Shown: positions 5,113 to 27,819, counted from the stretch's first letter. The stretch is DNA of 60,525 nucleotides from an uncultured Gammaproteobacteria bacterium (GCA_964349125.1 CAYGFH010000005.1:38211-98735), one strand, 5' to 3'. The notes: generated by a model from the sequence alone, not told the origin. Numbers and translations: made by a program.

Positions 5113-5483
5113 AATTTAAAATTGTCCTGGGTCAAAAAGATAATTATAATCAACAATATAGGATCATCATGAGCTTAGCCCGCTCATCCAGACGATGTTC
5201 CATTATGTGTTGGTCGACGTTTTGCTTGTGGCGATTTTTTTGCCGCTCGTTTCTCGTTGCCCCATGTTAATTATCTTTCCTCAAGTTGCTCACATGCAAA
5301 GTGTAAATCTTTTCCTTCGAGTGGGTTTTTTTGTGGAATAATCCAGATGATATCTTGTATCGTTCTGCTATCATGCCTGTCGCGTTTGACGCGATACCGG
5401 TATATATCCTCGAAGTGGGCATGATAGCATTATTATTTCTCGGTGTTGTCCATGATACACTTATCCCATACCCGCCGATTGCT

Positions 5484-7403: not shown

Positions 7404-7686
7404 TGTTGCGATTCTCCTTTGTACACTAGAATTTTGACTTTTTGCGATTCGATTATCCTCGTAGCTATGGGAATCCGAAAGTCAAAAATTTGACATGCAG
7501 ATTGCCATAGCCAGAAAATAATATTCTTTCTCTCCGGTTTTTAAGGTACAAAAAAGGCTCATTGATAGAGTATCGCGCGATTGCGAACAATCCAATCAGC
7601 CGCGTGTATTCTAGCATATTTACTATAGGTTGTCAATCTCTTTTGCGACTAGGCAAGTGTGGTATAAGTTTGTTACGATAGATTTT

Positions 7687-10370: not shown

Positions 10371-10787
10371 ATGATTGAACAAACCGTAGTGCTTATTAAG
10401 CCTGATGGATTTCAGAAAAAAGTAGTGGGCCAAATTATAGACAGATTTGAACGGGCTGGACTGGAAATCAAAGCCATGAAATTGTCAAAGCTCACAAAAG
10501 AAATTCTCGATGTATGGTATGCGCATATCGCGGACAAGCCGTTTTATCCATCCATTGTTACCGATATGACGGTCACTCCCGTCGTTGCGATGGTATTGTC
10601 GGGGGAAGGCGCGATTCAAAAAGTATTTGATTTATGTGGTCCGACAGATCCTGCGGTAAATCCGGAAGGCACGATTCGCAAAGCATATGGAGAGAGTAAA
10701 GCACACAATGTCGTTCACCGAAGCGATTCACCCGAAGCCGCTGCCAAAGAAATAGGATTGCTGTTTACAGCGGGCGAACTCTATTAG
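10371..10787 (+). CDS. ndk: Nucleoside diphosphate kinase
   Basis: IKPDG, GPTDP, GTIRK and NVVHRSDS (catalytic His) motifs. Confidence 0.97.
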   Translation: MIEQTVVLIKPDGFQKKVVGQIIDRFERAGLEIKAMKLSKLTKEILDVWYAHIADKPFYPSIVTDMTVTPVVAMVLSGEGAIQKVFDLCGPTDPAVNPEGTIRKAYGESKAHNVVHRSDSPEAAAKEIGLLFTAGELY

Positions 10788-11383
10788 TTCCAGAACTCGA
10801 TAGTATTGTACGCAAGCGCTGTGGCATCAAAGGGAGCTTTTCCGATGGTCAATAGCATGGTTAGCGCTTCATAGGTAGTGAACATTTGGGCTGATTCATT
10901 GGATATCTGCCCATCTGTTAACCGTTCCCGATCGAGCAGGTATGCGATTTTTCCTGCAATTTCTCCGGATTTTTCATACGCTGCTATTTGCGTCATCCCC
11001 TTGAGTGGACGAAGCGCAACGCCGGAGCATCCTTGGGATCGAAATTGAGCGATGAGATCGGGATCATAGCCATGTTCCCGTGGTGATACAATGTGGTCAA
11101 TTTGCCCGGGTGAATGCAGGTTTCCAATGATTACCCCGGCGGCAGCACCGTCTAGTCCTAGAAATGTAGTAGCCTTAAATTCCACAGGTTTATGAAACGC
11201 GGCGTGCCGGCTGATAGAACCATCCATCCACCCTATTGCTACTCGTTGTAGCACCTGCTTTTTCATTACACGATCCTGATTCAGGAGTGTAAGAAATTCT
11301 ATCCATCGCGATTCTGCTTTATCGCACGCCGGATGGTCTTGGGATTCTAAATTCTTTGAGAGTAGTTCTCTGTGTACTGTCAT
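10784..11383 (-). CDS. Hypothetical protein
   Basis: 199-aa ORF; the 5' part may extend through a frameshift. Confidence 0.6.
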   Translation of the reverse strand: MTVHRELLSKNLESQDHPACDKAESRWIEFLTLLNQDRVMKKQVLQRVAIGWMDGSISRHAAFHKPVEFKATTFLGLDGAAAGVIIGNLHSPGQIDHIVSPREHGYDPDLIAQFRSQGCSGVALRPLKGMTQIAAYEKSGEIAGKIAYLLDRERLTDGQISNESAQMFTTYEALTMLLTIGKAPFDATALAYNTIEFWN

Positions 11384-11680
11384 CCGTCAATTTTACTACA
11401 GGATATATCTCGTCGTCCACCGCAATACCTATATGTTCCTGTTCATTTACAACATAAAAGGTCTTGCGATCAACGTTGATACAATCCCTGATGCCGGTCA
11501 ATAGACGAGCGTTGTGTCTAGTGGCAGAAAGCGACGCCGTGTTGTACTTTTTTATGAGCATTGCCTATACCAAACGGTTCGTGGATAGCTATAACGTCTA
11601 GTCGCCCTCCGACTGTCGCATAACATACCGCGTGGAGTGTCCCAAACACCCTAAGTTCGCTCCAGGGTATGTTTTATATG

Positions 11681-14600
11681 CTATTTCTTCTTTCTAGCCC
11701 TTCCTTTATTTTTTCGTATGCTGATATTATTTGTATCGACAGTCCCATTTGGAAAGATTGGAATATAAAGCGTGGCCTCCGAGTCGTATTCTAGTCTTAT
11801 AATCTCATCTGACCCATCATCTTTTTTAAACCGGCGAGGCGATTTCGTGAGAGATTCTACAATACCAAGAATGTCTGGACTTCTTGCAATTCTATTCAGT
11901 TTTTCGATTAACAGTTCATCTTCCAGATCGGCGCCTACTGTCGCATACACTTCTACAATTCGTTCATTTTTCTCAAGAAAATCTTGTGGTCTTCTTTTGA
12001 ATCGTAGCGTAACAGTGGTTTTTTTCCGGTTCACAGGAAATTCTATATCATCGAGTAATCCGGATGCTGCAATACGGGCAAGGTCTTGAGCGTTTATGGT
12101 ATTAGAGAGTCGTGTCGCCTTCACAGCACTGTTAGACCTATTTGAATACGGCGGTGAGGACAAATATCCAAGGGTAGAAAGTAGGAATTCTTTGCCGTTT
12201 GCATGTACCTCAGTTGATTGTATTCGACTTTTTGGGTTTTTACTACTCTGGTCGAGCACATCAAGTGCGGTTCGTGGCGAATCTTTTGGACGATCTATTT
12301 CCGAAAGTATCCGAGCATCCTCCGCAGCAAGAGAGACAATCTTAGGTTCGTTAAAAAATGCTGCGACAGTGTTTTCTCCGATGAACCCAAATGTATCAAT
12401 GGTCGGTATATCATCCGCCGTGATAGGGATAGACGCAGCAACCCCGGCAATTATGATATCTTCGTTTGGTATCCTTCTTCCGATAACCTTCTCTGTGTTA
12501 GAGTCTACTACAGGTTCTGTGAGAGCCTGTATGGATGGTCTAGATGGTTGTACCCCCACAGGTTTCAAGTCAGATGTATACGTATCGAGCTTAAATTTTA
12601 TTTGTTCGGGTGGGTCAGAGGGTCCTTTTGTGATGACAACTGTGACCGTTTTGGGTGTGCGTTTAATAATTGTATGCGTGCTCCCATCTTCGAAAAATAG
12701 TTGTGCATCTACGCGTAAAAGGTTCTCTCTAATATTTTTTTCCCTGTCAAAAATATCTATTGGCGCAACAATTATTCTTTTTTGAGAAATAGGCTCAAGA
12801 AGCGCGGGCATTTCATCCGTAAATCCCGTGGCAAAAATAACACGGTCTCCCTGTGCATCTTGTGAGTTTCCCTTCTCATCGAGCCAAAACACCTGAATTG
12901 TATCGGTAAAATTCTGTTCTATGCGTAGGGCTTTTCCCGGCTTGGAGGTGATTCTCTGATACGAGTATCCGGATCTTTCTAGATCGAGACCGACTCGTGC
13001 GTACCGTGGGCGCGCTTTCTTAAGAAAATCTTGCTTTGTGATCGCGGGTTGTCCTATCCAAGTGATACGCCTTGGCCAATCGAGCTGTATTGGGCCACGA
13101 TTATCTGGGCCATATCCCAATAATGATTCCATAACGGTATTTGCAGAGTCATTCGATCCGATCACAATCACATCACCGGTAAAAAACTTTCTGGGAAACG
13201 CTTGTGACCTATCTCCAATAATCTGATACACCCATGATGAGTGAAGTATCTTTGGTATAATCCCTGCATCAATATCGTTTTTTGCCCGTGCAATTACTTC
13301 TTGTGTCTCTTCATCCTGTGCGTCCAAAAGTGGGAACGCTTCTTTCCCGACTCCTGTGAGTTGCCGTATTCTATCGGTGATAATTTTTAGTTGTTTTACC
13401 CCTTCAGGCCCGGTGTATTCGATGGTTACTTTGTATTTTGCCTTCGGATTTATGCGATCGGATTCGGGAATAATTTCGTAGGAAGTGGCGCTGGCGTTTA
13501 GTAGTGTTGGCCCGGATAAAAATTTATTAGTTCGTATAGCAGTTGCAAAATCTTCCTGTGTAGCGTACGTGGATCCTGTAATATCTGGTAACTGAATCGC
13601 TGCGTGAGGGCCAAGGGGATTTAGATTACCCGGATTACCAGGGATCCCTGGTTCATCATTGTTTTGCGGACGGGTACGGCTATTTAATGCGAGCGCTGCG
13701 GCCTCAGCTTCTGCAAATTGTCCTCCAAGTCTTCTAGATGAGTCTATGGTTAGTACTTGTGCAGTAGGGCTACCATGCAGAAGCTCAGATGTATATATGC
13801 TACCTGCCAATCCGGATCCGATAACGAGCGTAGGCACATATGTGTAATTCGCCTCCAACGCTTCGGCGATTTTTTGACTTTCTGCCATTGCCGCTCTGTC
13901 CAGTGCCGTATTGAACAGCTCTCGTGTGCGCTCAGATGAGAGTATAGCTGAAAATAGTGCTGTGAATTCTCTATGTGTCTCATCTCTCTCTTTCGTGCTT
14001 TCGGCAAACTCATCTCTACGCTCAAGAAATGGTTGTGCGAAGCGTTTGAAATCGACATCTTTTGAAAGTAAAGAAAAGAACGACCGCAAATATGGTGATC
14101 GCAATCGTTTTGCCCTGTACTCATGAGACAAAATTCTATCGGGTCGATTTTCCGGATCATAGGAAAGACCCGGAAGTTTTCTCCGATCAGTTAGGATCGG
14201 CCGTAGAGACTCATTTGCTTGTTTGATAGCATCAAATGGAGCTGGATTTCGCCTCTCCTCTGCGTCGAGGAGTAATCTGACATACAAATCTGTCCTCGTG
14301 TCACTGGGCGAGCTCTTGTTAATGACATTTGACACCACAGTCTGAAGGAATAGATACCGTTCTGTGCTTTGTTGTCTCTCTTCACTGACACCCTTCAATC
14401 GCGCATATCCAATTTTCAAGGCTACAGGGATTAACGCATTTAATCTTTCTGAGCGTCTGTCAGATGTATACTCGGGGGCATTCGTGTTTATTTTATTCGC
14501 CAGCAGTATTGCCAGTAATGATTTTTCATTTTTTGTCAGACCGGTATTTTCTATGCTTTTTGCGCCAGCTTTCACGTCTTCAGAAATAGAAGGTAATTGT

Positions 14601-14827
14601 CCGACTGAGCCTGCTACTGCTTCGACAATTTGCTCAGCTTTTTCTTCAGCTGTAACAAGATTTCTCGTAAATTCTGCTCGTATTCGTGTGACGGGCAACA
14701 CCACAGAGACGCTTGGTCTTCCTCGATTCTCTCGTGTCGGAATAACGGTATCGAGTAATAAGTCATATTCAATATCGTTCGTCCATTCAGGAAAAGATTG
14801 GCGTTCTTGATTTTGTGATTCAGCCAT
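11681..14827 (-). CDS. Large FAD/NAD(P)-binding oxidoreductase-like protein (1048 aa)
   Basis: LVIGSGLAG Rossmann motif, D..RRLGGQ, second dinucleotide motif VIVIGSNDSA, VIFATGF. Confidence 0.8.
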   Translation of the reverse strand: MAESQNQERQSFPEWTNDIEYDLLLDTVIPTRENRGRPSVSVVLPVTRIRAEFTRNLVTAEEKAEQIVEAVAGSVGQLPSISEDVKAGAKSIENTGLTKNEKSLLAILLANKINTNAPEYTSDRRSERLNALIPVALKIGYARLKGVSEERQQSTERYLFLQTVVSNVINKSSPSDTRTDLYVRLLLDAEERRNPAPFDAIKQANESLRPILTDRRKLPGLSYDPENRPDRILSHEYRAKRLRSPYLRSFFSLLSKDVDFKRFAQPFLERRDEFAESTKERDETHREFTALFSAILSSERTRELFNTALDRAAMAESQKIAEALEANYTYVPTLVIGSGLAGSIYTSELLHGSPTAQVLTIDSSRRLGGQFAEAEAAALALNSRTRPQNNDEPGIPGNPGNLNPLGPHAAIQLPDITGSTYATQEDFATAIRTNKFLSGPTLLNASATSYEIIPESDRINPKAKYKVTIEYTGPEGVKQLKIITDRIRQLTGVGKEAFPLLDAQDEETQEVIARAKNDIDAGIIPKILHSSWVYQIIGDRSQAFPRKFFTGDVIVIGSNDSANTVMESLLGYGPDNRGPIQLDWPRRITWIGQPAITKQDFLKKARPRYARVGLDLERSGYSYQRITSKPGKALRIEQNFTDTIQVFWLDEKGNSQDAQGDRVIFATGFTDEMPALLEPISQKRIIVAPIDIFDREKNIRENLLRVDAQLFFEDGSTHTIIKRTPKTVTVVITKGPSDPPEQIKFKLDTYTSDLKPVGVQPSRPSIQALTEPVVDSNTEKVIGRRIPNEDIIIAGVAASIPITADDIPTIDTFGFIGENTVAAFFNEPKIVSLAAEDARILSEIDRPKDSPRTALDVLDQSSKNPKSRIQSTEVHANGKEFLLSTLGYLSSPPYSNRSNSAVKATRLSNTINAQDLARIAASGLLDDIEFPVNRKKTTVTLRFKRRPQDFLEKNERIVEVYATVGADLEDELLIEKLNRIARSPDILGIVESLTKSPRRFKKDDGSDEIIRLEYDSEATLYIPIFPNGTVDTNNISIRKNKGRARKKK

Positions 14828-14886
14828 ATAAGCCAGTATGGCATGGTCTCAGAATATCTGACAAGTATATATCTCTGCGCGTTTTC

Positions 14887-16002
14887 TTATCGTTTCTTCT
14901 TACTTCTCTTGTGCTGTGTTGTGTGAAATGCATCTTTATATGCCAATTCCATATCACGCATCAATGCAAGCCGTTTATGTATCATTTCCATAGGAATACC
15001 CGCGTTTAGTAAGATCTGGTACTGCTTTTTTCCAATTGTTTGTATCGATTGCCAATTCATTTTGGGGTATACCCGTTCAATCTTAGGAATTAATGTCCTG
15101 ATAGTGGCCATGAGCATGGTTGCCGATATACTATCCGTAGGATCTTCTGTCACCCTGAGCGTATGTTCCTGTTTGCGAAATTTGCTTCGTATATTGGGTG
15201 ATTGTCGCCGCAGTAGTGCCAGCGCAAGGCGTTTCCACATGCGTGCTTCATACACCCACATTTCGGTCTCAATAGCGTTTCTGGTTCGGTGTGTATCTTC
15301 AAGATCTACAATGACACCGGATAGCGCATGGCGTTCCGGTTTCAATGACAGATTATCGATAAGCGTTCCCGGATATGCGGAGGATACATGCACCTCATCG
15401 TGGAGTAAATGCGAAACCTGTTCTATGGTGAAGCGTTGTGTTATCACTATATTTTCATTACGCACGAACCTGCGTTTGGTGCTCTGTCTGCGCGGGATAT
15501 ATGCCACGATCAGTGATTCACGATTTCTCCGTTTGGTAATCACGTTCCCGTTTCGCATATCAAATCCGTAGGTGCGTGTACAGTCTTCCCGCAGTCTGGC
15601 ATTACTCGTTGTATGACCGGTCTCATCCTTCAATTCCTTGAGGCCGCCTCGTATGATTTCATCCGGTGTCGGGTTCGGAATGTCTAATCCGCCACCCCCC
15701 GGAAGTATATACATATCCGGGCTTTTACTATCGGCGTCTTTCTTCTCCCAGATAATACGGGTGAGATGGGGAGTAGGTGAACAGAATTGCCTGAACACAT
15801 GTATAGCAGTACTCGCGTCCGAGATACGGGTAAAGACATTCCTAATCTCTTTCCGATTTAGAAACATGCCGTGCCGCATTTCGCCAAACGAAGCTACCTG
15901 TAGCGCGATGACGCGAGAGACATCTCGAAACTCCTCGTGTATATCGAGTTCAGGCCTGTTCATCGCACCAGTTCCCTGTTCCATTTCTGTTCCTTTTGAC
16001 AT
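14887..16002 (-). CDS. Nudix-domain protein
   Basis: ILPGGGG...GGLKELKDETG Nudix box; paralogous to the N-terminus of the upstream gene. Confidence 0.75.
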   Translation of the reverse strand: MSKGTEMEQGTGAMNRPELDIHEEFRDVSRVIALQVASFGEMRHGMFLNRKEIRNVFTRISDASTAIHVFRQFCSPTPHLTRIIWEKKDADSKSPDMYILPGGGGLDIPNPTPDEIIRGGLKELKDETGHTTSNARLREDCTRTYGFDMRNGNVITKRRNRESLIVAYIPRRQSTKRRFVRNENIVITQRFTIEQVSHLLHDEVHVSSAYPGTLIDNLSLKPERHALSGVIVDLEDTHRTRNAIETEMWVYEARMWKRLALALLRRQSPNIRSKFRKQEHTLRVTEDPTDSISATMLMATIRTLIPKIERVYPKMNWQSIQTIGKKQYQILLNAGIPMEMIHKRLALMRDMELAYKDAFHTTQHKRSKKKR

Positions 16003-16123
16003 ATATGTTGATCGATATTATACAACAAATATCCTATAACATGCTACCAATGGTATTTAGTAGGATAAAGGCACGTATACCCGGATATGTGTGTAGGAGC
16101 GTTTTCCATACTTCATTACCAGG

Positions 16124-18757
16124 TTAATTATTGCTCGAATCACGCCTAAATAGCACGGTAGATTCTATTTTTTTCGCCAAATCGAGCAGGAGTTGATGGT
16201 ACCAGGTAAATATTCGCATCCGGATCGAGCTGGGGAGTGCATAGAACGGGTCTTTACGCTTGTGGTACTCCGACATGACATCGTTATATGCTTTTTTTGA
16301 TCCAAAAAGAGTTTCCAACATGGAATACCTATGTTCAATAAACTGAATATGACGCCTAAAATTATAATCAGGGTCATCGAGCTTTTTGTGTATAAGGTCG
16401 TCCAGTGATCTGAATATTTGCCACTCAAGCTCATATACGCCGGAATCATCGTGCATCATATATCCATATTTTAACCATTGAAATGAGTCGCTATCTGATG
16501 CGGCGCTGCCGCCATCCTGAGGCTCTATAGTAAGGATTTTTGAAAATTTTTTATCCCATCGACCTTTCTCCAATGTGTGTTTTGGGTGCAGTGATGCCCG
16601 TCTTTCATCTAACTGATCATGAAATTTCACCAGTATTCGTTGTATTGCCCATACACTGAAGTAGTCGGCCATTTCTGAAAGGTGATCATTTGACAGGTGA
16701 GGGTATTCTTCGGAGAGCGCTTTTTTCCATGAATCTATGTCCAATGCCAGCATGAAGCCAAATTCATCTGTCATTTCACGCTCTGGATGCTCCAATATGC
16801 CCTGCGCAAGAAATTTTCTGTATCTGGAATACTTATCTTTTTCTCGCAGCGAGAAGAATATATCCACATCAAATTGGCTTACATCTATATCCCGAAATAC
16901 AGGATCAGTAAATTCGCCATCGTATGGACGTGATGAGCGGTCCGGGGGTATTGCGAGCAATTCTTTCGGGATATGATGCCTGGTGTATCTACCCCCCTCT
17001 ATAGTGATCGTCTCAACAGGCGCGCCGATGATTGCTTTTGCAGATTCTCTGATAGGTTTGATATGCAAGTTTGTTTTTACTCGAGCAGCCGCATCCACCC
17101 GATCCATGTGAAGTTCATGTACGAGCTTGCACAGGGCAGCAGCCCGTTCTGAAGCGTGCACAGGTTCATCTGCGTATTGATCTACTCCGAGTATAATCAT
17201 CATAAGTTCTCCAATTTCCGACGTGGATGTACCCAGCGGATCACCGTTGAGGCGATTAAGATTTTCCTTTGGAATTTTGTGTGAGAGTGCGAGGATTTCC
17301 TTTTCGATAAATTTATTGACTTCCCCGGATAAATACCCTAATTTTTCCGGATCACCTATTCGCCAAACTTCGGCTGATGTCGGATTGCAAAATCGTTTTG
17401 CCAGAGTTTTACCAACCTGCTCGTACGCCTTAAAATCACTAAATTCCAATTGTCTGTAGAGATTAAATTGCTCTAACAGCTGTGCATGCCACATATCATT
17501 TCTCGGATTTATCTCAAAAACATCACATATTGTATCGATAATATGCTTGAGTTCCGGGCATCTGCTGATGATGCTATATTCGTATGCACCCCAAGTCTCA
17601 ACCTGACTAATGGTATGCGCGAGTAGCAGAGGAAACTGAGGGCCCGCTTCTTTATAATACTCTGTCGTGATATCTAATTTGACTTGACGGACTGCCTCAT
17701 TCATTAACATAGTAAGCATAGATCGTTTTGCAATGCGCTCTTTCGTGACACCTCGTTTTGTGAGTGAAACAATTGTCTGTTCTGGGAATAGGGCAGGGCC
17801 AATAGGTGATAAGGGATTGAGTCGTTTTTCAATTTTTTGTATGAAACCTAATGTTTTGGACAAATCCCTCTGGGCTTCACTCTTCGTCGTAGGTTTTGGT
17901 GCTGCTATAAAATGGCGGATGCTACTGGTAAGCTCCGATTTACCAATTTTTGATAATTGGAGCAATCGAGATAAGACTTTCCTTTGTATAAACGATTCAT
18001 AAACATAGCTTTCCGTTTCGACCGTTTGGGTGAATTGATCCGGTGAATTGTAGAGTTGCACCCTGGCTTTTTTATGATTTTTCGTATCGCGGGATAAGCT
18101 GTCCACTATTGGGTAAAATTTACCGTCAATAGTGAGTCCATTATTGGCAAATAGCGTTGTCACTTGACTTGGCAGCAGTCCGACGACGTTTTGAAGTTTG
18201 TCTTTCGGGTCGAAATAATTGACTTTATCGTGTGGCGCGCCCTTTGCAATCACTAGGTGTGTGGTATTTTTTAACCGTCCTGGGGATTTTATATCAGGTA
18301 ATCGGGGATGATCAAAACTATATGTATATGAGGCATTTGGTGCGACATGCGCTTTGTGAGCATTTAAATGCACCTCATCAAATAGCTCTCGACGGGCTGT
18401 CTTCAATATTGTTTTTTCAGAGATGGGTTTTTCTGGATCTACTTTTATTCCGCCGCCTCCAGGCAAAATGAGCTGCTCAGGATTTACAACCGCCTTTCCG
18501 TTTGCTTTGATTTCCATCATGACGGTGGTCATCTGGGGCATGGCAGATGAGTGATCATGAAACAGCTCATGTTCCAGCGCGATACCGGTAGCGGCCGTAC
18601 CGGCAAGTATCGTGTCTATATTCCCGGGAGATGGGATCATTTGCGATTCGATCGTTGTCCCGTCCATTCTGTAAAGCGCGACACGAACTGTGTCCTGGTG
18701 GTACACATGTTCTGGTGATTTTCTATCTTCTTTATACTGTGATTCAAGTGCATTCAT
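16124..18757 (-). CDS. Nudix + RelA/SpoT-like nucleotidyltransferase fusion (~877 aa)
   Basis: Nudix box LPGGGG...ARRELFDEVH; RSH-synthetase-like motifs REKDKYSRYRK, DEFG and EWQIF. Confidence 0.7.
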   Translation of the reverse strand: MNALESQYKEDRKSPEHVYHQDTVRVALYRMDGTTIESQMIPSPGNIDTILAGTAATGIALEHELFHDHSSAMPQMTTVMMEIKANGKAVVNPEQLILPGGGGIKVDPEKPISEKTILKTARRELFDEVHLNAHKAHVAPNASYTYSFDHPRLPDIKSPGRLKNTTHLVIAKGAPHDKVNYFDPKDKLQNVVGLLPSQVTTLFANNGLTIDGKFYPIVDSLSRDTKNHKKARVQLYNSPDQFTQTVETESYVYESFIQRKVLSRLLQLSKIGKSELTSSIRHFIAAPKPTTKSEAQRDLSKTLGFIQKIEKRLNPLSPIGPALFPEQTIVSLTKRGVTKERIAKRSMLTMLMNEAVRQVKLDITTEYYKEAGPQFPLLLAHTISQVETWGAYEYSIISRCPELKHIIDTICDVFEINPRNDMWHAQLLEQFNLYRQLEFSDFKAYEQVGKTLAKRFCNPTSAEVWRIGDPEKLGYLSGEVNKFIEKEILALSHKIPKENLNRLNGDPLGTSTSEIGELMMIILGVDQYADEPVHASERAAALCKLVHELHMDRVDAAARVKTNLHIKPIRESAKAIIGAPVETITIEGGRYTRHHIPKELLAIPPDRSSRPYDGEFTDPVFRDIDVSQFDVDIFFSLREKDKYSRYRKFLAQGILEHPEREMTDEFGFMLALDIDSWKKALSEEYPHLSNDHLSEMADYFSVWAIQRILVKFHDQLDERRASLHPKHTLEKGRWDKKFSKILTIEPQDGGSAASDSDSFQWLKYGYMMHDDSGVYELEWQIFRSLDDLIHKKLDDPDYNFRRHIQFIEHRYSMLETLFGSKKAYNDVMSEYHKRKDPFYALPSSIRMRIFTWYHQLLLDLAKKIESTVLFRRDSSNN

Positions 18758-18830
18758 AATTGACACGTCGCCTACGCGACATAGTTCCTTCTAAGCTCAT
18801 TCATATGAATGAATTCGCTAAGTAGTCACT

Positions 18831-18852
18831 AAAAAACCCGCTTATCGCGGGT
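18831..18852 (-). terminator. Intrinsic terminator (attenuator C:D hairpin) upstream of the Nudix-RSH gene
   Basis: Minus strand ACCCGC-GAUAA-GCGGGU followed by U-tract. Confidence 0.75.
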
Positions 18853-18884
18853 GTAATTTATAAGGTTTTATGATTCCTATTCCA

Positions 18885-18953
18885 TTACACCCTCGACCCA
18901 TCCCAAAGAAGGGCTGGTTTTCGTGTAATAAAATGGACGACGAATTGATTCAT
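18885..18953 (-). CDS. Putative attenuator leader peptide MNQFVVHFITRKPALLWDGSRV*
   Basis: TACTAT 7 nt upstream; stop codon lies inside the antiterminator strand (18884..18892). Confidence 0.6.
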   Translation of the reverse strand: MNQFVVHFITRKPALLWDGSRV

Positions 18954-19009
18954 AAAACTCATAGTAATGTATCACACATATTTGAAATATGTCAACTCTT
19001 TGTCATAAC

Positions 19010-19038
19010 TTCAAAGCTAAGCTTTGAAATTTTCCGGA
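19010..19038. repeat. Palindrome TTCAAAGCTAAGCTTTGAA plus tail ATTTCCGGAG, copy 1
   Basis: Inverted second copy at 40810..40839. Confidence 0.85.
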
Positions 19039-19318
19039 GCGTATGGATGGGCTGTAAAAACGATAAAACCCCACTTTTTCAAATTGAATCAATGGGGCTT
19101 TAATCACGTATTTCTTTTTTTAAGCAGTGTTACCGTGTGGGGGAGATGTCTCAATCCCGACGTATGTCGGGACTAGGAAAACTCCCACACACACAGATAT
19201 TAATACTTAGTCAAATTGAATTGACTATTTTTTCCTGCAGGTTCATGTGTCTGGAAGTTTTTTCAGTGTCCGAAAGTTAGCTCTCGAGGGCGAATCGAAA
19301 ATATCTTTCGGGTTGGGT

Positions 19319-19756
19319 TTATTGTTGGGTTGCTTCTGGCGTAACTTTGAAAATAGTGCCAATCAAAGCTAATATCCCAGTGACTGTAACCAGAACGGTG
19401 TAAGCCAGCATAATCCAGCCATCCGCAACTTGAAATTCAGCGAGTTCATGAATTCCAAATGGGGTAACCTGAGTGACTAACACCATGCCAGTTGCCAAGG
19501 TTACAAAACCCATAACACCAACTAAAACTCTTGCGATTATCGGAGTTTGAGAATTGTTGAGCCAAGGGCTCATTGCCAAAAGCATGCCTAACGTACAGCC
19601 AAGAGTGTAGGAGAACATATAGTTTGTGCCACCGCTGACTGAAAACCAAACAGCATCTTCAGTCCACGCATTCACTGCGGTTTGAGCGGACCAAAGAAAT
19701 GCAAATGACAAAACTAACCCGGCTACTGTCACAAGCAATCTACCTAAATTCTTCAT
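19319..19756 (-). CDS. Four-TM membrane protein
   Basis: Four hydrophobic helices; strong SD AAAGGAGGTA. Confidence 0.85.
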   Translation of the reverse strand: MKNLGRLLVTVAGLVLSFAFLWSAQTAVNAWTEDAVWFSVSGGTNYMFSYTLGCTLGMLLAMSPWLNNSQTPIIARVLVGVMGFVTLATGMVLVTQVTPFGIHELAEFQVADGWIMLAYTVLVTVTGILALIGTIFKVTPEATQQ

Positions 19757-20066
19757 GGTCTACCTCCTTTCTTTATCATGATCTTCATCAGTCGCCCGAG
19801 GCACAGCCTCTCTCCAAAGCTGATGAAGTGTCAGATCGCATCCGTGGCGTATGGCTGTCCCAGCCGCCTGCGATCGGGGTCAAAGATGACCTGTGTGAAA
19901 AAGAAGAAGGTCATCTTCTGTTTCATTCAGGCCACCTATGTCAAAAAGGAGTGTTCTGCAGAAAATTGGTAATGTGCAATATAAAAAATACGTATTGATA
20001 CAAAGCCGCAAATGGCCATATTCAACGAATAGAGTATAACACTATAAGCTATATATATCAAACCAA

Positions 20067-20140
20067 GGACACGTCGCTCACGCGACATATGTGGCAGTAC
20101 GCCTTGCTCAGGCTTAGGCTACTGCCACAAAAAAATCCCT
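20067..20140. repeat. Dispersed repeat GGACACGTCGCT...ATATGTGGCAGTACGCC...AAAAATCCCT, copy 1
   Basis: First 37 nt nearly identical to 21032..21068 and both copies end in AAAAATCCCT; partial copy at 18762..18783. Confidence 0.8.
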
Positions 20141-20200
20141 AGATCAGTCAGACGCGTTTGCCTGAGATATAAGGATTTATGTTTGTTCGTATCTTATCTT

Positions 20201-20286
20201 TTTCTACAACGCGTTAATTGAAACAATCAACCCCGATACAATCGGGATCAACGCAATTGATTGCTTCAGAAAGAGCGTTGTAGAAA
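20201..20286. repeat. Long REP/MITE-like imperfect palindrome
   Basis: Ends TTTCTACAACGC / GCGTTGTAGAAA with a central CCCCGA-TACAA-TCGGG hairpin. Confidence 0.75.
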
Positions 20287-20466
20287 TAGGTGAAAGGGTC
20301 ATATGAAATGGATTGTCTGCACGATTGCAGCAAAAGTTTCATAGTTTTTTTCAGCTATTTTTTTGGGGAATCCGACGTTTGTCAGATTACGCTCAAGTTC
20401 ACCTTCTCCGGCGCAAAACCAAGAATTATCATCTTGGCTGAAGGATGCAAGACCGGAGAAGGGAGG

Positions 20467-20539
20467 CGGGGATGGCAGGACTCGAACCTACAACCGCTGC
20501 ATTTAAAGTGCAGTATTCTGCCAATTGAACTACATCCCC
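20467..20539 (-). tRNA. tRNA with anticodon UUA (ochre-suppressor type), Trp-like body, no encoded CCA
   Basis: GGGGATG TA GTTC AATTGGCA GAAT A CTGCA CT-TTA-AA TGCAG CGGTT GTAGG TTCGAGT CCTGC CATCCCC G; all four stems pair. Confidence 0.9.
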
Positions 20540-20552
20540 GAACTTAAGAAGA

Positions 20553-20627
20553 CCACACTTCCCAATGGATTCATTCCTCGGAGGACCCGATGAATCCAAA
20601 GCTACCGTTATAACTCGGGAAGTGTGG
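20553..20627 (-). ncRNA. Structured spacer element between the two atypical tRNAs
   Basis: 11-bp stem CCACACTTCCC/GGGAAGTGTGG enclosing a 9-bp stem TGGATTCAT/ATGAATCCA and a small TCCT/AGGA hairpin. Confidence 0.55.
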
Positions 20628-20630
20628 AGG

Positions 20631-20702
20631 TGCCCACGGAAGGATTTGAACCTCCGCTCTTTGCACGGTGAGTGCAATGCTCAACGACTGAGCTGCGTGG
20701 GC
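20631..20702 (-). tRNA. Atypical tRNA(CAC), Val-like or pseudo-tRNA
   Basis: GCCCACG CA GCTC AGTCGTT GAGC A TTGCA CT-CAC-CG TGCAA AGAGC GGAGG TTCAAAT CCTTC CGTGGGC A; C8, no D-loop GG and C37 are non-canonical. Confidence 0.7.
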
Positions 20703-20949
20703 AAGAACTGTGCCTTTTTTCTATCTACCCCCCCCCAACAAAAAGAAAGATACAGATACAAACAACAAAAAAGCTATCTGTTGCTTGTGTCTGTATCTTC
20801 ATCTGATGATGTAAACGTGCAAAAACGAACGTTTTGAGAGTGTATCATAAACGATCAGTATTTCGCAATCTATTCTTTATTTCTCTGACATGTCTCTTGC
20901 GGATATTTGTGGCACAGCGCGCCCCAAAATTCTTGTTAATACCTATTTC

Positions 20950-20975
20950 GCTATCATGTAACGGTACATGATAGC
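20950..20975. repeat. Palindrome GCTATCATG-N8-CATGATAGC, copy 2
   Basis: Matches 6916..6941; extends to tatttc...gaaata (20944..20981). Confidence 0.8.
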
Positions 20976-21031
20976 GAAATACTGAAACTGTCCACATGTC
21001 AAATATACGGAATCAGATAGTAATCTATTAT

Positions 21032-21160
21032 GGACACGTCGCTTGCGCCACATATGTGGCAGTACGCCAAGGAGTGCAATGTATCCAGCTTTGCCGGATA
21101 GTGCCTCGTACGCCTTTTCTCTATGAATCGAACGGGCTACGATTGCACTAAAAAATCCCT
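21032..21160. repeat. Dispersed repeat, copy 2, with an internal insertion flanked by GTACGCC duplication
   Basis: Same ends as 20067..20140; GTACGCC at 21062 and 21107. Confidence 0.75.
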
Positions 21161-21306
21161 CGGGAGTTCAACGCAAATGTTGAATCTCGGGGGACTTAAT
21201 TACGGTCTCGCAAAGGGGGATTGGATCAACCCCGATTAAATCGGGACTGAGTAAAACCCCCTTTCTTCTAAATTGTTGTATTGCACTAACCGCCGGTTCA
21301 CGCCTG

Positions 21307-21813
21307 TTACACATCCACTTTCTCAGGTGGAGGAATTTTGGGAACTTTTTCCCGTTCAAAAAAATGCCGTTCCGCCCAAGGAAACAATGACCAGAACAAA
21401 ACGTTACCCAGCACAAATGGAAGATCAATTAGCATAAGTAACGCAGGGAGCACTGCTGATGCTACAAACGCGCTGATTGTGTTTTTCGGCTTCGCTGTAA
21501 TTCCAGTTGAATGATTCCAACTAAAACCCAGGTAATACGCACCTATGAAGCCGGATAGTATGCCAGCGATGAGCCTGTTAATTCCTGCAGTTTCCATAGA
21601 GACGAACGTGAGAAATACCGCGATCAAAAAGGCGAGTATCTGTTCGATGTTCGCAGTATTTTGATCATCATCGTATCTGGTGATCCTCCTTTCCTTTTTG
21701 CTCTTCATTCTTGATACGGCGACAAGCAAGTTTCCAAAAATCGCCAGAAGGCTTGCCAGAACTGCTAAAACTGCGAGCCATTCGTGCCAGTTCGATGGAT
21801 ATTGAATTACCAT
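21307..21813 (-). CDS. Membrane protein, hypothetical
   Basis: Several TM segments; closely coupled to the upstream ORF. Confidence 0.8.
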   Translation of the reverse strand: MVIQYPSNWHEWLAVLAVLASLLAIFGNLLVAVSRMKSKKERRITRYDDDQNTANIEQILAFLIAVFLTFVSMETAGINRLIAGILSGFIGAYYLGFSWNHSTGITAKPKNTISAFVASAVLPALLMLIDLPFVLGNVLFWSLFPWAERHFFEREKVPKIPPPEKVDV

Positions 21814-21815
21814 GA

Positions 21816-22064
21816 TTACCTCTGCATTCTGCTTAGTGCTTTACCAATCAGCCAGCACCCTCCGATTGGGGCTATAAGACAACAAGTCCCTACACCAAGA
21901 ACGAGTAAGGTTTGAATAACTGATGGGAGGTTAGCCATTGCATTCCTCCTTATTCCGGACGCACGCCGAAATACTTGAGCGTGCCGAACTTGGGCGCTTC
22001 TAACAAAATAACTATGACGATGCCTGCGCCTGTTGCGACGAGCAAAAATTTCCACCATGGCCAT
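21816..22064 (-). CDS. Small basic membrane protein
   Basis: Arg-rich N-terminus, one TM, AAAGGAG upstream. Confidence 0.65.
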   Translation of the reverse strand: MAMVEIFARRNRRRHRHSYFVRSAQVRHAQVFRRASGIRRNAMANLPSVIQTLLVLGVGTCCLIAPIGGCWLIGKALSRMQR

Positions 22065-22558
22065 CTCGTTTTCATCTTATTTCGATTCTCCTTTCGTTTC
22101 TAAGATGATATTCCAAAAAAATAGTCAATCCACGTTCGTTGGCTATTTTTCATGGAATACCATGTGAATCCAGTTAGAAAATTGCGTTACAACAATGTCA
22201 AGGTGCTAAGCACCGCAGTCCCGTAGCATCGCTCTTCCAATAGAGAAGTAAGATGTTAGCGGGGCAATGTGCGAGACTTTTGGGATTATAGCAAAATGCA
22301 TCGGGTTTTGTGAAACATCCTGTCTGGTAGCTTCAAACAAAAAGGGCACTTATTACTATAAGCCTTTCTATGGTATAATACAGAGGCAATCTTTGGCAGA
22401 AGCGCCAAAACGATTGTTTTTTGCACGTTTACATCCCCCATATTACAGAACTACCATTCTGTTGTCGCGCGCATTTGGGATACATACTACATGTATTTCA
22501 ACTGTGCGCGACACACAATTTTCAATTCTATTTAAACAGTAAAGGAAAAAGAGTAATC

Positions 22559-22882
22559 ATGTCAAAGAGAAGAATGGTAATAAGAACTGGTTTGGACCAA
22601 AAGAATGTAGACTACGTAATAGAAACCGCGGTTTCAGTAATGGGAATCATTACTGGGAAAATCGGGGACAATGTACTTGAGTTCACATGCAAAAGTGATG
22701 TACCCGCAGACGAAATGTATCTTACATTTGAATTCGGTCTCACTAGAGGTGCCTCAACTTTCCTCACAACGTACGAGGAGATTTTCGCGAATGTTGGTTG
22801 GGACTTTGGTGAGCTGGAAATCATTCGTGAGGATGATATTCCAGAGTCTGCAATTTCGCAGATAGAACTCAAGTTGCAATAA
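22559..22882 (+). CDS. Small acidic hypothetical protein (107 aa; start MSKRRMV)
   Basis: AAGGA upstream; downstream hairpin tggccgttatt/gtaatggcca. Confidence 0.75.
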   Translation: MSKRRMVIRTGLDQKNVDYVIETAVSVMGIITGKIGDNVLEFTCKSDVPADEMYLTFEFGLTRGASTFLTTYEEIFANVGWDFGELEIIREDDIPESAISQIELKLQ

Positions 22883-22964
22883 TCATTGCCTTTGGCCGTT
22901 ATTCGGTCGCGCCGTAATGGCCAAGGGTGTTGGTGTGTTTTGTTGTATGGGGGATTGATTTTAC

Positions 22965-23849
22965 TTAGTGAAACATCTCCATGATAATCCGTCCGCTTTC
23001 CCAGAAGCCGTACAAAGCCAGTAGAATAAAGGCAATCGTACCCGCAAACGAAATGTATTCATTTTTCACTGCCTGTATTGTCTTGGCGGGGGAAATAAAC
23101 AGTGCAATATTCAGAATCGTATGGGCGGATATGACGCCGATGGCAAATCCGTAGACGTTAATGACACTAAAAAGTGGCACATATCCGGCAAAATCATCCA
23201 AGCCCAGTATAAAAGGAACAGATGCGGAAAATACAAGCAATTGTTTCCAAGATAATTTACTCTGACCTTTTAACTTTTCTCCAAGATTCGGCATGATGCG
23301 GGATAACACGGGGTCTGTGAGCTTGTTTATACCGCCTAAGAATCCTGAAAGGGCCTGAAATATAGCGTTTTTGACCCCATGACCCGCTTTCCAGGTTTCA
23401 AAGTGCTCCAGTGAGCCATGCGCCAGTTCAAACAATACCAGAGCCGCAAGCGCGACCATGAGAGCGAGCAGGATGTGCACATCTTTGAACAATACCCAGA
23501 GACCGATAATGGCAATCGTTCCCAGGGCGTTGCCTGCCGCCGTGCCGATCTCTATGGCCACTCTATTTTTCCATCCGGTGTTTGTGGTCATGAGCCTACC
23601 CATGAAAATAGCGAAATCGATGGATGTCTTGAGATAGATGGTTATACCGATTGCCACATCCACCCAGTGAATATTCATGTCTATAACTTCTCTGACGGGA
23701 AACAGATTAAAAAATAAGAGAGCACTATGAAGAGTGAAAATGAGCACCAGAAGAACCACGACTGTAAGGCAGAGGGGGACGAGCTGACGCAATAATCTGG
23801 AATCCTCTACGGTTTTGACAAATACATTCATTGTCACAGTATACCTCAA
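22965..23849 (-). CDS. CadD-like (LysE superfamily) membrane transporter
   Basis: TSIDFAIF and LGLDDFAGYVPLF resemble the two CadD repeats; multiple TM helices. Confidence 0.65.
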   Translation of the reverse strand: MRYTVTMNVFVKTVEDSRLLRQLVPLCLTVVVLLVLIFTLHSALLFFNLFPVREVIDMNIHWVDVAIGITIYLKTSIDFAIFMGRLMTTNTGWKNRVAIEIGTAAGNALGTIAIIGLWVLFKDVHILLALMVALAALVLFELAHGSLEHFETWKAGHGVKNAIFQALSGFLGGINKLTDPVLSRIMPNLGEKLKGQSKLSWKQLLVFSASVPFILGLDDFAGYVPLFSVINVYGFAIGVISAHTILNIALFISPAKTIQAVKNEYISFAGTIAFILLALYGFWESGRIIMEMFH

Positions 23850-24717: not shown

Positions 24718-27700
24718 ATGCCTGAACTTCCCATGAGCCATTTTAAAATTCCTATTGATCATCAGCAAAATAATGCTGATATGACACAGCGGACTCTCTT
24801 ACAAGGGGAGTCGTTAACCATGGACGTATCAGACGCTGAACAGTTTTCATTACCGGCATATATGAGTGCACTTGAACACCATGTGTTGCATAACAGATCC
24901 CGTATTAAAGAAACATGGATGGATATGCCTGTATGGGGTGACGGAATCAGTTTGCGGCATTTTAGCGAGCCTCAGGCTGTTTTTCACCCTCTTTCAGGGG
25001 GAATTCTTATACCAAAGAATGGACTGAGTGATCAGTTGCACTCATTTTATGCAGTACCTCGACATGGAGTAGTATTGGGCAATCATATAGATAACAGGGC
25101 TGCCGCATATTTTGCCCCCGTAGATCCTGCCATGTCGACCCGTGATAGGCTCAGCGCTATACAACAAAATATCAACGATACTCTGTCTGTTTTATCTACA
25201 GTAGATTTTACCGAACAATCAGATGCTGATTTTTTAGGCACTCTGGGCTTGTTAGATACCATAAAAACGAGCTATCTATCTTTGTACCATACTCTTACGT
25301 ACTCCGAACGCACAGATACTCAATTTCATGACGATGAGTATGCCACAGTCAAACAATCTCTGCTTGGTAGGGCATTTGATGCTGTCCAAACGTATTATTT
25401 ATACATGCTTGGGCACACTCAACGTGCTTTGCATATTTCGGCAAAACTGCCAAACATGCAGCGTGTATTGGCACGTGATATTGAATATATGAAGCAACGT
25501 AATCTTCCGCGGGAGCATTTCCGGTTACCAGAGTTGGATCATCCGTTAAGCATTGCTGGAAATGTCATCTTGAATATTGCTACATACCCTTCGATAGATA
25601 CGATAATCGGTTTACCTTCTGGGGGAACTGAATTGGCCTTTGCTCATCAAATAGGGTACGAATTGATACATGGTAGGATGCCGGATATTATCTTGGTTCC
25701 GTTGTCTACACATTCTGGCTTGCCAAATACCGACGAAAAACGCGACATTCAGATCGTTAAACAATGTCTGGACTCCTATCACAACGCTATAGATGGGAAA
25801 TCTATACTCGTGACCGAAGATAATGCTAATTCCGGAGAAACAGCCTCAATTATACAGTCTCAGCTTTTGTCTGCCGGTGCAAAAGAAGCACATGTAACTA
25901 TAGCAGCGTTAGATACTATTCGCACCGCAATAAAACAAACAAAATGGCCTGCGGATCGTCGGCCTCGTATTGTTCCCGGTATGTCACTTGTTCAAAACGC
26001 CGTTACAATAGCGCCAATTATAAAACGCACGTTCAATGACGTATCAGATGATCGTCAGATTGTGAAATTACTGCGTCTCAGACGTATTCGAGATGCATAT
26101 AGAGCACATCTGCCGAACAATGAACCACTTCCGGATGTACAGCCGGGTATTTCCACAGCATTGAACGTGAAAATATGTGGTATTCATAACGCGGTTGATT
26201 TACGCAATGCCGTTAGTGCCGGTGCTCGGATGGTAGGAATTCATTTGACGTATGACAACCCACGCGGATACGAGTCAAAAGTAGGCTCATTTGCTCATCC
26301 TATGGCTGAAATAGGACTTACTATGGCGCGTGGATTCCACCCACAGAAATCGCTACCGTTACCATGGGCGGAATATGGGTCTCTGAAGCACATGATGGCG
26401 GATGCCACTGATATTCAAGTGCCGCTTACATTCGTCCTTCTTATGCGTCCAAAATCCGTACATGACGTATTGGCCATGGTAGAAACGGCAGTTCCAAAAG
26501 GATTTACCCATCAGATCGATCTTCAGATACAGCGGTCATATGATCAAGACTTTTTGAAGGAACTGAGAGAAACGCTCAACGCTCATGGGTATACGAATAT
26601 CCGAATAATTCAGACATTCGGTGCGAATCAAGAACATATAGAATCACTTCTGCAACGTGCGAACGCGGATGATCATATTGATTTTATATTATTGGATTCA
26701 GACCTCAAGGGTGGGACTGGCATACAAACCAGCTCAACCCTTCTAGTCAACTTGGCGGAGCAAATACAAAAACCATGGTATCTGTCCGGTGGTCTGCGTG
26801 CAGAAAATATAAAAAATACGCTCACGTCGCTGAGAGGCACAAATCTGTTTGGTGTGGATGTAGAATCATCGGTGGAACTGGAGAGACCGATTTCTACAAC
26901 AGTAGGGGCAACGCACGCGTTCGCGCGTGTGAGAAAAGATATCGAAAAAATGAACACATTTATGTATCAGGTACAGCAAGCTGAACTGCAAACATTTTTT
27001 GAGACCCGCTATATGGATTTGGATGTACGCCAAACAGAATTCTATGCTGTACTCAAGAATGGATGGAAATCTGCATATGAGGAATGTGGATACTATAATC
27101 TTGATGCAATTGCTCGTGCAGTATATGCGGAAGCGACATCACGTGGTATTGTCGGTAGCATTAACGAAGAAGATTTTGTAGCAGTATTTAAAGAAGGTGC
27201 CATAGCGTATCCATTCGTGCCGGATCAATATATTCAGGACAATTGGCCGGCAAATAACGTACAAGATTTTCTCAATATCATACGAACGCAGGTATCTGCA
27301 ACAGCGGGATCTGTAGGAGTGTTAACATCAGGTGACTCTGAGTTGTTCGATAGCGGCAGCTACCAAGGTAGCCCAGAACAGGTATATAGATTCCGATTAT
27401 CAGGGTTACAACGGCTAATGAATGACCTATATGGACCTGAAGGATATACGTTTATAGCGCACCCATTTAAGGTACAAGAATTTGAATCCCACATACTCGA
27501 GAAGGCCAAGTCATCTTCCTCTCTAGTTATATGTATTGATGATAGGGTAGAGAATCTTCAAAAAACCAGGCACTTATGTGAACGTGAAGGGGTACGGTTT
27601 GTTGGAATCAATATATCTTCAGAGAGTAATGATGCTGATTTTATACAATGTGCCGATCTGGCATCTGCGGCAGAAGTTATAACCCAACTGCCCACAGATG

Positions 27701-27819
27701 CACCGCATATGTATGTGTTGGATATGGATGACGTACTTCTGAAGGAACAATTTAGAAAAGATCATCAGGCCAAAAATATATACCTTAATCTGGTAAAACA
27801 TACCTGTATACACATATGA
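24718..27819 (+). CDS. Multidomain fusion: unknown N-terminus, type I phosphoribosyltransferase, TrpF/PRAI-like TIM barrel, HAD-like domain
   Basis: SILVTEDNANSGET (PRPP loop); VKICGI, FILLDS, GGTG, LSGGL, GVDVESSVE and KDIEK (TrpF); MDLD, LTSG, HPFK and IDDRVENL (HAD). Confidence 0.85.
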   Translation: MPELPMSHFKIPIDHQQNNADMTQRTLLQGESLTMDVSDAEQFSLPAYMSALEHHVLHNRSRIKETWMDMPVWGDGISLRHFSEPQAVFHPLSGGILIPKNGLSDQLHSFYAVPRHGVVLGNHIDNRAAAYFAPVDPAMSTRDRLSAIQQNINDTLSVLSTVDFTEQSDADFLGTLGLLDTIKTSYLSLYHTLTYSERTDTQFHDDEYATVKQSLLGRAFDAVQTYYLYMLGHTQRALHISAKLPNMQRVLARDIEYMKQRNLPREHFRLPELDHPLSIAGNVILNIATYPSIDTIIGLPSGGTELAFAHQIGYELIHGRMPDIILVPLSTHSGLPNTDEKRDIQIVKQCLDSYHNAIDGKSILVTEDNANSGETASIIQSQLLSAGAKEAHVTIAALDTIRTAIKQTKWPADRRPRIVPGMSLVQNAVTIAPIIKRTFNDVSDDRQIVKLLRLRRIRDAYRAHLPNNEPLPDVQPGISTALNVKICGIHNAVDLRNAVSAGARMVGIHLTYDNPRGYESKVGSFAHPMAEIGLTMARGFHPQKSLPLPWAEYGSLKHMMADATDIQVPLTFVLLMRPKSVHDVLAMVETAVPKGFTHQIDLQIQRSYDQDFLKELRETLNAHGYTNIRIIQTFGANQEHIESLLQRANADDHIDFILLDSDLKGGTGIQTSSTLLVNLAEQIQKPWYLSGGLRAENIKNTLTSLRGTNLFGVDVESSVELERPISTTVGATHAFARVRKDIEKMNTFMYQVQQAELQTFFETRYMDLDVRQTEFYAVLKNGWKSAYEECGYYNLDAIARAVYAEATSRGIVGSINEEDFVAVFKEGAIAYPFVPDQYIQDNWPANNVQDFLNIIRTQVSATAGSVGVLTSGDSELFDSGSYQGSPEQVYRFRLSGLQRLMNDLYGPEGYTFIAHPFKVQEFESHILEKAKSSSSLVICIDDRVENLQKTRHLCEREGVRFVGINISSESNDADFIQCADLASAAEVITQLPTDAPHMYVLDMDDVLLKEQFRKDHQAKNIYLNLVKHTCIHI

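Follow-up and report, generated by a model that had tools for sequence, protein, structure and literature searches.

Can a synthetase of the RelA/SpoT homologue (RSH) superfamily and a Nudix hydrolase be joined in one polypeptide and, if so, what would such a protein do? The question is raised by gene A, situated at 16124–18757 on the minus strand of a window of 60,525 nucleotides (GCA_964349125.1, CAYGFH010000005.1:38211-98735; by the window we mean the whole stretch of DNA that was analysed), which encodes 877 aa from an ATG at 18757 and holds a Nudix domain, a helical scaffold and an RSH-like domain in one protein. RSH enzymes are central to the stringent response of bacteria and are regarded as well catalogued; a Nudix-RSH fusion was not found described in the literature searched. 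The C-terminal domain of A very probably has the RSH synthetase fold, and for the whole protein we propose, at what we judge to be an even chance, a self-contained make-and-break nucleotide-signal enzyme with two opposed activities on one rigid protein.

Gene A is followed by gene B (14887–16002) and gene C (11681–14827), the three forming consecutive, co-directional open reading frames (ORFs) on the minus strand. Translation bore out an earlier note on this DNA as regards ORFs A and B and every motif that it had quoted. The ATG at 18757 is the start in the database copy and in all homologues of A, and residue numbers are counted from it; an alternative GTG start at 18766 would give an ORF of 880 aa (16124–18766).

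Domain organisation of A

An AlphaFold2 model of A was built on a 43-sequence alignment and reached a mean predicted local distance difference test score (pLDDT) of 91.9 and a predicted template modelling score (pTM) of 0.89, while a run on five sequences (pLDDT 58.9, Nudix part unfolded) was not used for the fold search. The model divides the protein, on the minus strand throughout, into a beta-rich Nudix-fold domain (residues 18–235, 18053–18706), assigned from Foldseek and from Pfam matches within the family, an all-helical scaffold of 340 residues (residues 240–577, 17027–18040), the first ~120 residues of which are common with B, an alpha/beta RSH-like synthetase domain (residues 580–805, 16343–17020), assigned from profile searches, hhalign, Foldseek and invariant columns, and a set of C-terminal helices seen in the model (residues 813–865, 16163–16321).

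Foldseek was run with the whole 877-residue model as query and 50 PDB matches were listed. The top ones are Nudix hydrolases, namely the Ap4A hydrolases 5cfi and 4mpo, RppH and NudI (E 4e-4 to 1e-2, prob 1.0), with NudC and Dcp2 also among the Nudix matches. The only non-Nudix enzymes among the 50 matches listed are small alarmone synthetases (SAS), RelP (6ex0_B, E 0.13, prob 0.87) and a RelQ-like enzyme (2be3_A, E 0.15, prob 0.95). In the viral library BFVD Nudix enzymes again stood on top and a weak match to a phage RelA/SpoT protein was included.

Homology of the C-terminal domain

An alignment of the C-terminal domain (35 sequences) was used as a profile against all PDB sequences and gave six matches, three of them RSH enzymes: a GTP pyrophosphokinase (9s6k_B, E 0.001), RelA (8fr8_I, E 0.0045) and Rel (5xnx, E 0.08). 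All three alignments fall on the stretch RxKxxxSxxRK...DxFG. The same profile was run on six-frame translations of 401 Patescibacteria genomes, where it matched the genome from which the window comes (G000), a family member in G495 and nine genomes with canonical Rel genes, so that the cross-matches were to Rel only. These Rel genes encode ~500–780 aa (E 1e-6 to 4e-4 per genome) and carry HDxxED, RxKxxYSxxRK, PKPNGYxSxH and EVQIRT, as read directly. An hhalign comparison with 22 Rel synthetase domains of the same class gave P = 7.7e-5 and a probability of 62%. RelA_SpoT is also the sole Pfam family weakly matched by more than one family member; PF04607 gave a weak match in 2 of the 35 domain sequences, with a best E of 0.0034, under its 27-bit cut-off. 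A search of the PDB with the single sequence of A gave noise only (SUMO and L27, E > 0.5).

Two other identities were considered for the domain. A protein kinase, with DxFG taken as DFG, was rejected on the order K...D...K...E, which is unlike VAIK/HRD/DFG, and the Pol-beta pattern, which calls for GS and then DxD 9–13 residues on, was rejected as no such DxD follows G750-S751.

The earlier note had called an RSH synthetase from motifs in this part of the protein, a call to be dropped if no RSH-type fold was seen. The profile search of the PDB, the search of 401 genomes, hhalign and Foldseek agree on RSH, and we conclude that the C-terminal domain is a remote and very divergent homologue of the RelA/SpoT synthetase domain.

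Conserved residues and the acceptor site

The motifs of the domain were located by translation on the minus strand, REKDKYSRYRK (the ATP motif RxKxxxSxxxK) at 16814–16846, DEFG at 16757–16768, FQWLKY at 16466–16483 and EWQ at 16418–16426. In residue numbers the series reads R638xK640xxxS644xxR647K648, D664xFG, G750SxAS, (F759)xW761xK763, E778xQ780 and K791KxDD795. In the alignment of 43 sequences the sole invariant columns of the whole protein are K640 (RxK), D664 (DxFG), K763 (WxWxK), E778 (ExQ) and K791, and R647, K648, R652, W761, Q780, D794, D795 and R802 are conserved in at least 90%. This conservation pattern is beyond chance.

Set against canonical RSH synthetases, the ATP-phosphate motif RxKxxxSxxxK is present and includes K640, R647 and K648. 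D664 stands at the position of the Mg-binding Asp of DxxGxR and is followed by xFG, the trailing Arg not being conserved, and E778 corresponds to the Glu of ExQ(IRT). The acceptor-stacking Tyr of the YxxxH/G-loop is absent from A, where (F/W)xWxK stands instead (F759-Q-W761-L-K763), so that an aromatic and a basic residue are kept but no Tyr or His; the earlier note had pointed out the replacement of YxxxH by FQWLKY. A conserved GSxAS loop precedes the strand. Both the equivalent Mg-Asp and the acceptor-stacking Tyr are essential in FaRel2, a SAS toxin (bioRxiv 10.1101/2021.04.30.441581). As the aromatic platform is kept but the pocket differs from YxxxH, the acceptor site would be altered and a non-canonical acceptor is plausible, and since an aromatic residue is retained the acceptor might still be a nucleobase.

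The Nudix domain and its paralogue B

The Nudix box of A, GGGGIKVDPEKPISEKTILKTARRELFDEVH (18368–18460), consists of GGGG-x5-E, a 12-residue loop and then RELFDEVH, and departs from the consensus GX5EX7REUXEEXGU in having 12 residues rather than 7 between the E and RELFDEVH. Most relatives show GG-x(7)-E-x(7)-RExxEExH, with canonical spacing in many, and the RExxEE-type acidic residues are conserved across the family. Pfam NUDIX (PF00293) scores A at 14.3 bits, the cut-off being 21.1, and matches 16 of the 43 relatives at E <= 0.1 (best 3e-12), which together with the Foldseek ranking upholds the N-terminal Nudix call made from the motif.

Gene B encodes 371 aa and is a paralogue of residues ~20–360 of A, that is, the Nudix domain and the first scaffold helices, without the RSH-like domain. 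The paralogy, proposed earlier, extends beyond the Nudix box, with a BLASTP E of 2e-8 and a match of the A-family profile to B over positions 17–343 (E = 4e-45) and with an aligned region that begins at the first strand (DxVRV) and reaches approximately residue 350 of A. B itself has no Pfam NUDIX match and carries the box variant KELKDETGH; the B-type relatives P0031, P0035 and P0056 exceed the 21.1-bit cut-off. As the acidic residues are retained, the Nudix domains of A and B are probably active hydrolases.

A gene B is found downstream of A in L099 (76% identity to B) and L004 (40%). However, no B adjoins A in G093, G094 or L060, and G001 has B but no A. B is therefore neither an obligate antitoxin nor an obligate partner of A. 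The antitoxin role that the earlier note had suggested as possible is not supported, and the locus gave no PADLOC or PHROG match.

Distribution of the family and the host genome

A word-indexed homologue search with A returned four relatives, and a profile of these was used in an exhaustive HMMER search of 1.84 billion representative proteins, which gave 59 proteins at E <= 1e-3. Most have 700–950 aa and some are shorter or of partial architecture: a few of ~360 aa align to profile positions 22–362 only and are of the B type, and P0043 and P0054 (~200–240 aa) match the C-terminal domain only and are stand-alone RSH-like forms. The resulting family alignment of 43 sequences has a mean identity of 21%, and a word-indexed search repeated with it added just three sequences. 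The family is rare, has no name and lies outside Pfam, NCBIfam and PADLOC; its distribution is patchy even inside the genus. Read-through had been suspected from marks of one internal TAA on the homologues in G017 and G105 and was discarded, at least the G017 gene being an ordinary 833-aa ORF with a terminal stop. In G142, G085, G144, G139 and G140 (L035–L038 and L052) proteins of ~757–791 aa resemble A in the Nudix region only (profile ~16–250), their C-terminal part being different and uncharacterised.

The source genome, of which the window is contig 5, has 1.6 Mb, is 98% complete and belongs to a Patescibacteria bacterium of the candidate phyla radiation (CPR); every genome of its taxonomic class has 0.6–1.8 Mb. 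Two metagenome-assembled genome records that carry A, CAYUKU010000007.1 (L005) and CAZKLT010000007.1 (L006), bear the NCBI title "uncultured Gammaproteobacteria" but are placed by the genome tool in the same family as G000, and since the class is uniformly made up of small genomes this label looks wrong.

The variable region around A

The genes lie in a variable hotspot (10787–22965) between NDK (10371–10787) and a gene for 294 aa (22965–23849). The cargo amounts to 12 kb in the window and to ~3 kb in G002, and relatives hold different large orphan proteins. Identities to relatives are 72–96% for the flanks of the hotspot and 74–87% for the neighbouring M16 peptidase, and 28–44% for A. In the window the hotspot holds C, B, A, a small membrane protein, tRNA(UUA) and tRNA-Val. 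L099 and L004 have A and then B, L060 has A alone, and in G093 and G094 A is followed by unrelated large orphans, with a homologue of C ~12 kb downstream. Two genomes of the same genus lack A; in G001 the hotspot contains B along with two large proteins, one of 1439 aa and an HD_4 protein of 754 aa, and the sole protein in the hotspot of G002 (723 aa) combines an HD_4 domain with a weak ACT match. The gene immediately downstream of A in G093 and G094 (849 and 861 aa) was considered as a relative of B or C and set aside, as no similarity was detectable; the orphans of G093 include an alpha/beta-hydrolase-like protein of 761 aa.

The long HD_4 proteins thus occupy the NDK-flanked hotspot of A, in G002 at 5263–7434 of L088 (723 aa) and in G001 at 11071–13335 of L065 (754 aa), and in all three HD_4 proteins were found in G002 and one in G001. 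PF04607 matches neither long protein, the ACT match is sub-threshold and confined to that of G002, and the strand that should read EvQIRT reads, by eye, VRLRF; they resemble long RSH proteins whose synthetase is inactive. The G000 genome has no match to PF04607 (RSH synthetase) or PF13328 (HD_4) and no homologue of the long HD_4 protein. Of the 87 genomes of the order, which is otherwise without RSH synthetases, 5 carry A and 14 the long HD_4 protein. RSH-related nucleotide enzymes recur at the locus, without strict replacement of one by the other. According to a survey of the RSH superfamily (Atkinson 2011) bacterial SAS were not found without a hydrolase, and a Nudix ppGpp hydrolase is cited there.

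Gene C starts 59 nt past the stop of B and encodes an orphan of 1048 aa with one Rossmann-type GxGxxG stretch, a weak NAD_binding_8 match (E 0.027) and no sequence relative in the PDB. When A, B and C were compared with Pfam, NCBIfam, PADLOC and PHROGs the only matches were sub-threshold ones to NUDIX (A) and NAD_binding_8 (C). Full-length homologues of C occur only in G093 and G094 (34–35% identity), on the same strand as A and ~12 kb downstream of it, and both of these genomes carry A; a partial match lies within the 1439-aa ORF adjoining B in G001. A functional link between C and A is uncertain. Beyond the hotspot, at 24718–27819 on the plus strand, lies a gene for a 1033-aa protein with a PRAI (TrpF) domain and a DUF2608-like end, situated after an AAA_18 kinase-like gene and before a 2-hydroxyacid dehydrogenase.

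Upstream control region and nearby tRNA genes

Upstream of A, on the minus strand, a putative control region (18830–18995) contains in that order a promoter, a leader ORF and a terminator. The promoter-like sequence TTGACA-18-TACATT, with a TG, lies at 18995–18966, a leader ORF of 22 codons, MNQFVVHFITRKPALLWDGSRV, at 18953–18885, and a GC hairpin with a T-run at 18852–18830. The leader has a folding z-score of -4.1, and by eye its segments allow the alternative pairings 1:2, 2:3 and 3:4. It is near base-for-base identical in L099 (~600–785), where A is 81% identical and the flanking DNA unalignable. In two further genera, L005 (9786–9960) and L006 (9770–9935), the layout of promoter, upstream ORF, terminator and A is kept, with 26-codon ORFs ending in GDVV, and a shorter form is found in L004; the leader peptides close with G..V-stop. 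Transcription of A seems to be gated by a leader-peptide/terminator attenuator, judging from this layout. An upstream ORF of 12 codons overlapping the start of A (ATG at 18782) was dismissed, as it is not found in L099.

A well-formed tRNA gene at 20465–20539 on the minus strand (Rfam 70.9 bits) has the 7-nt loop CTTTAAA with the anticodon UUA, corresponding to the stop codon UAA. The nearest relative of this tRNA is the tRNA-Phe(GAA) of G095, 83% identical, and with Aragorn a tRNA-Phe(GAA) was not found anywhere in the 98%-complete G000 genome. Genome-wide reassignment of TAA was rejected, TAA being the commonest stop and ending 380 of 703 long ORFs. G118 (L080, 1388–1466) also has a tRNA(UUA), and in L004, ~1.4 kb upstream of the homologue of A, a tRNA with the anticodon UCA, which reads UGA, lies at 7538–7612 on the plus strand, has a Trp-like body and adjoins a tRNA-Met. 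The leader ORF of L004 stops at TAA and not at TGA, which is at odds with a simple relation of the suppressor tRNA to the stop codon of the leader.

Proposed function and alternatives

From the folds, homology, conserved residues and gene context computed here we infer the enzymatic activity, the substrate, the coupling of the domains and the attenuation, and the make-and-break enzyme that we favour would work as follows. The C-terminal domain would move the beta,gamma-pyrophosphate from ATP onto the 3'-OH of a nucleotide, which may be one other than GDP or GTP. K640 and R647/K648 would bind ATP, D664 would hold Mg2+, and E778 and Q780 would catalyse the transfer, in an acceptor pocket apparently rebuilt with WxWxK in place of the stacking Tyr-xxx-His and with the new GSxAS loop. 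The N-terminal Nudix domain and the free-standing B would cleave or trim the product, the job done by the HD domain in long bifunctional Rel/SpoT, the 340-residue helical scaffold would join the synthetase and hydrolase domains, and the leader peptide and terminator would couple the expression of A to ribosome stalling. A further-reaching version, which is possible but to our minds doubtful, takes A as a new RSH branch with Nudix in the role of HD and a product other than (p)ppGpp, forming a one-gene alarm circuit for CPR bacteria that lack Rel, switched on by the attenuator when ribosomes stall; if this is true, the attenuator would be a transcriptional counterpart of the ribosome sensing of RelA.

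Several results weigh against the make-and-break enzyme. PF04607 gives no match to A itself, and the four sequence tests for RSH homology all rest on the first half of the domain, its second half, with ExQ, aligning to EiQIRT at P = 0.07 only. In the reverse search, with a hidden Markov model of 22 Rel sequences, A was not singled out among the 4,916 ORFs of G000 and family members scored at most 7 bits. The Foldseek matches to RelP and RelQ are weak (E 0.13–0.15, target-normalised template modelling score 0.38–0.41), the low scores being due to the use of the whole protein as query. The family is found in 5 of the 87 genomes of the order and in 2 of the 401 of the Patescibacteria sample, and it evolves fast, A being 39% identical where the adjacent M16 peptidase is 74% identical, which is more in keeping with an accessory or conflict gene than with a core regulator of stress. 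The idea that A cleanly replaces the HD protein also had to be rejected, since both are present in G094 and G105.

The same non-significant reverse search and the failure of Pfam to recognise the domain would suit a resemblance to RSH that is convergent, or a dead relic in which the C-terminal domain is a non-catalytic scaffold or ligand binder. We consider this very unlikely, as within the 877-aa family only residues that one would expect to be catalytic are invariant and several independent profile searches match RSH enzymes only. A toxin or defence function, in which a domain of the toxic SAS (toxSAS) type would make (pp)pApp or pyrophosphorylate tRNA 3' ends, would be restrained by the Nudix domain and B and would be released on phage attack or stress, draws on the fact that toxSAS are themselves RSH synthetases of divergent sequence and changed acceptor use, held in check by hydrolases or by antitoxins that bind them (PMC7229694, PMC11782079). 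It would account for a hypervariable hotspot in which A diverges much faster than the flanks, for the patchy distribution even in the genus and for the tRNA genes with stop-reading anticodons that adjoin A in two genomes. Yet no PADLOC or PHROG match and no defence or phage marks were found, A with its 877 aa and rigid scaffold is not small, A and B are each found in the absence of the other, and the locus is syntenic across genera and not on a recognisable mobile element; in the literature searched no mention of toxSAS together with Nudix was found. The dispensability of B and its retention without A, the size and rigidity of A, the lack of defence or phage marks and the synteny make this unlikely, and less likely than the make-and-break enzyme, while the fast evolution, the patchiness and the hotspot keep it alive.

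Two further explanations take the protein out of alarmone signalling within the cell. The Nudix domain might process 5'-triphosphate, capped or dinucleoside-polyphosphate ends in the manner of RppH or Ap4A hydrolase while the RSH-like domain modifies 3' ends, in a non-signalling role in RNA turnover or repair. The closest structural matches of the Nudix domain (Ap4A hydrolases, RppH, NudC and Dcp2) point this way, and tRNA 3' ends are among the acceptors open to RSH-fold enzymes, but the Foldseek ranking among Nudix enzymes, at 12% identity, is no assignment of substrate, and no RNA-binding domain was detected in A by the Pfam scan or Foldseek; we regard such a role as quite unlikely. A could also be an effector aimed at the host cell of a probably episymbiotic bacterium, comparable to Tas1, an effector that makes (p)ppApp. 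Its fast evolution, the large orphan proteins nearby and the lifestyle of CPR bacteria would be in keeping with this. However, by eye and not by a predictor, the N-terminus MNALESQYKEDRKSPEH has no hydrophobic stretch like a signal peptide, there are no secretion genes nearby, and the fused hydrolase would undo the product of the effector, so that of all the explanations this is the most improbable.

In the survey of Atkinson 2011 Nudix is named in two settings only, DUF429 fusions and a separate hydrolase of ppGpp. With a family that escapes Pfam, NCBIfam and PADLOC, places Nudix where HD is expected and has changed acceptor residues, the RSH superfamily and its nucleotide products may be wider than listed. 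This bears on stress signalling in ultra-small CPR bacteria, many of which are without Rel.

Comparison with known systems

In long RSH proteins (Rel, SpoT), as in A, a hydrolase stands N-terminal to an RSH synthetase on one polypeptide, RxKxxxSxxxK, DxxG and ExQ follow in equal order, and the opposed activities, proposed ones in the case of A, are joined by a helical linker. The hydrolase of A is however Nudix and not HD, and the Pfam scan detected no HD, TGS or ACT domain in A. The scaffold comprises 340 helical residues where long RSH proteins have a short three-helix bundle, WxWxK stands for YxxxH, ~55 extra residues are inserted between DxxG and ExQ, and Pfam RelA_SpoT is mute.

A appears to have the central beta-alpha-beta layout of RelP and RelQ (PDB 6ex0, 2be3), together with their catalytic Asp and Glu, but these SAS are single-domain tetramers of ~200 aa using GDP or GTP, while the domain of A is embedded in 877 aa. 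The toxSAS (FaRel, FaRel2, PhRel, CapRel and Tas1) are, like A, divergent RSH synthetases; they use acceptors other than guanosine nucleotides (ATP/ADP or the tRNA CCA end) and are countered by hydrolases or binding partners. Known toxSAS are small and keep the stacking Tyr, which is replaced in A, and their antitoxins are small alarmone hydrolases (SAH, of the HD type) or binders, not Nudix. At the locus of A PADLOC and PHROG gave no toxin-antitoxin or defence signature, and there is no co-inherited adjacent antitoxin gene.

Hydrolysis of (p)ppGpp by Nudix enzymes is established, and the alarmone-degrading Nudix enzymes (Thermus Ndx8, B. subtilis NahA, E. coli MutT/NudG), like Ap4A hydrolase and RppH, have the Nudix fold and the acidic RExxEE in common with A. 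The Nudix box of A differs from theirs in its loop of 12 residues instead of 7 and in a His for the last Gly, and where these enzymes are free-standing proteins of ~150 aa, the Nudix domain of A shares its polypeptide with a synthetase domain and has a second copy in B.

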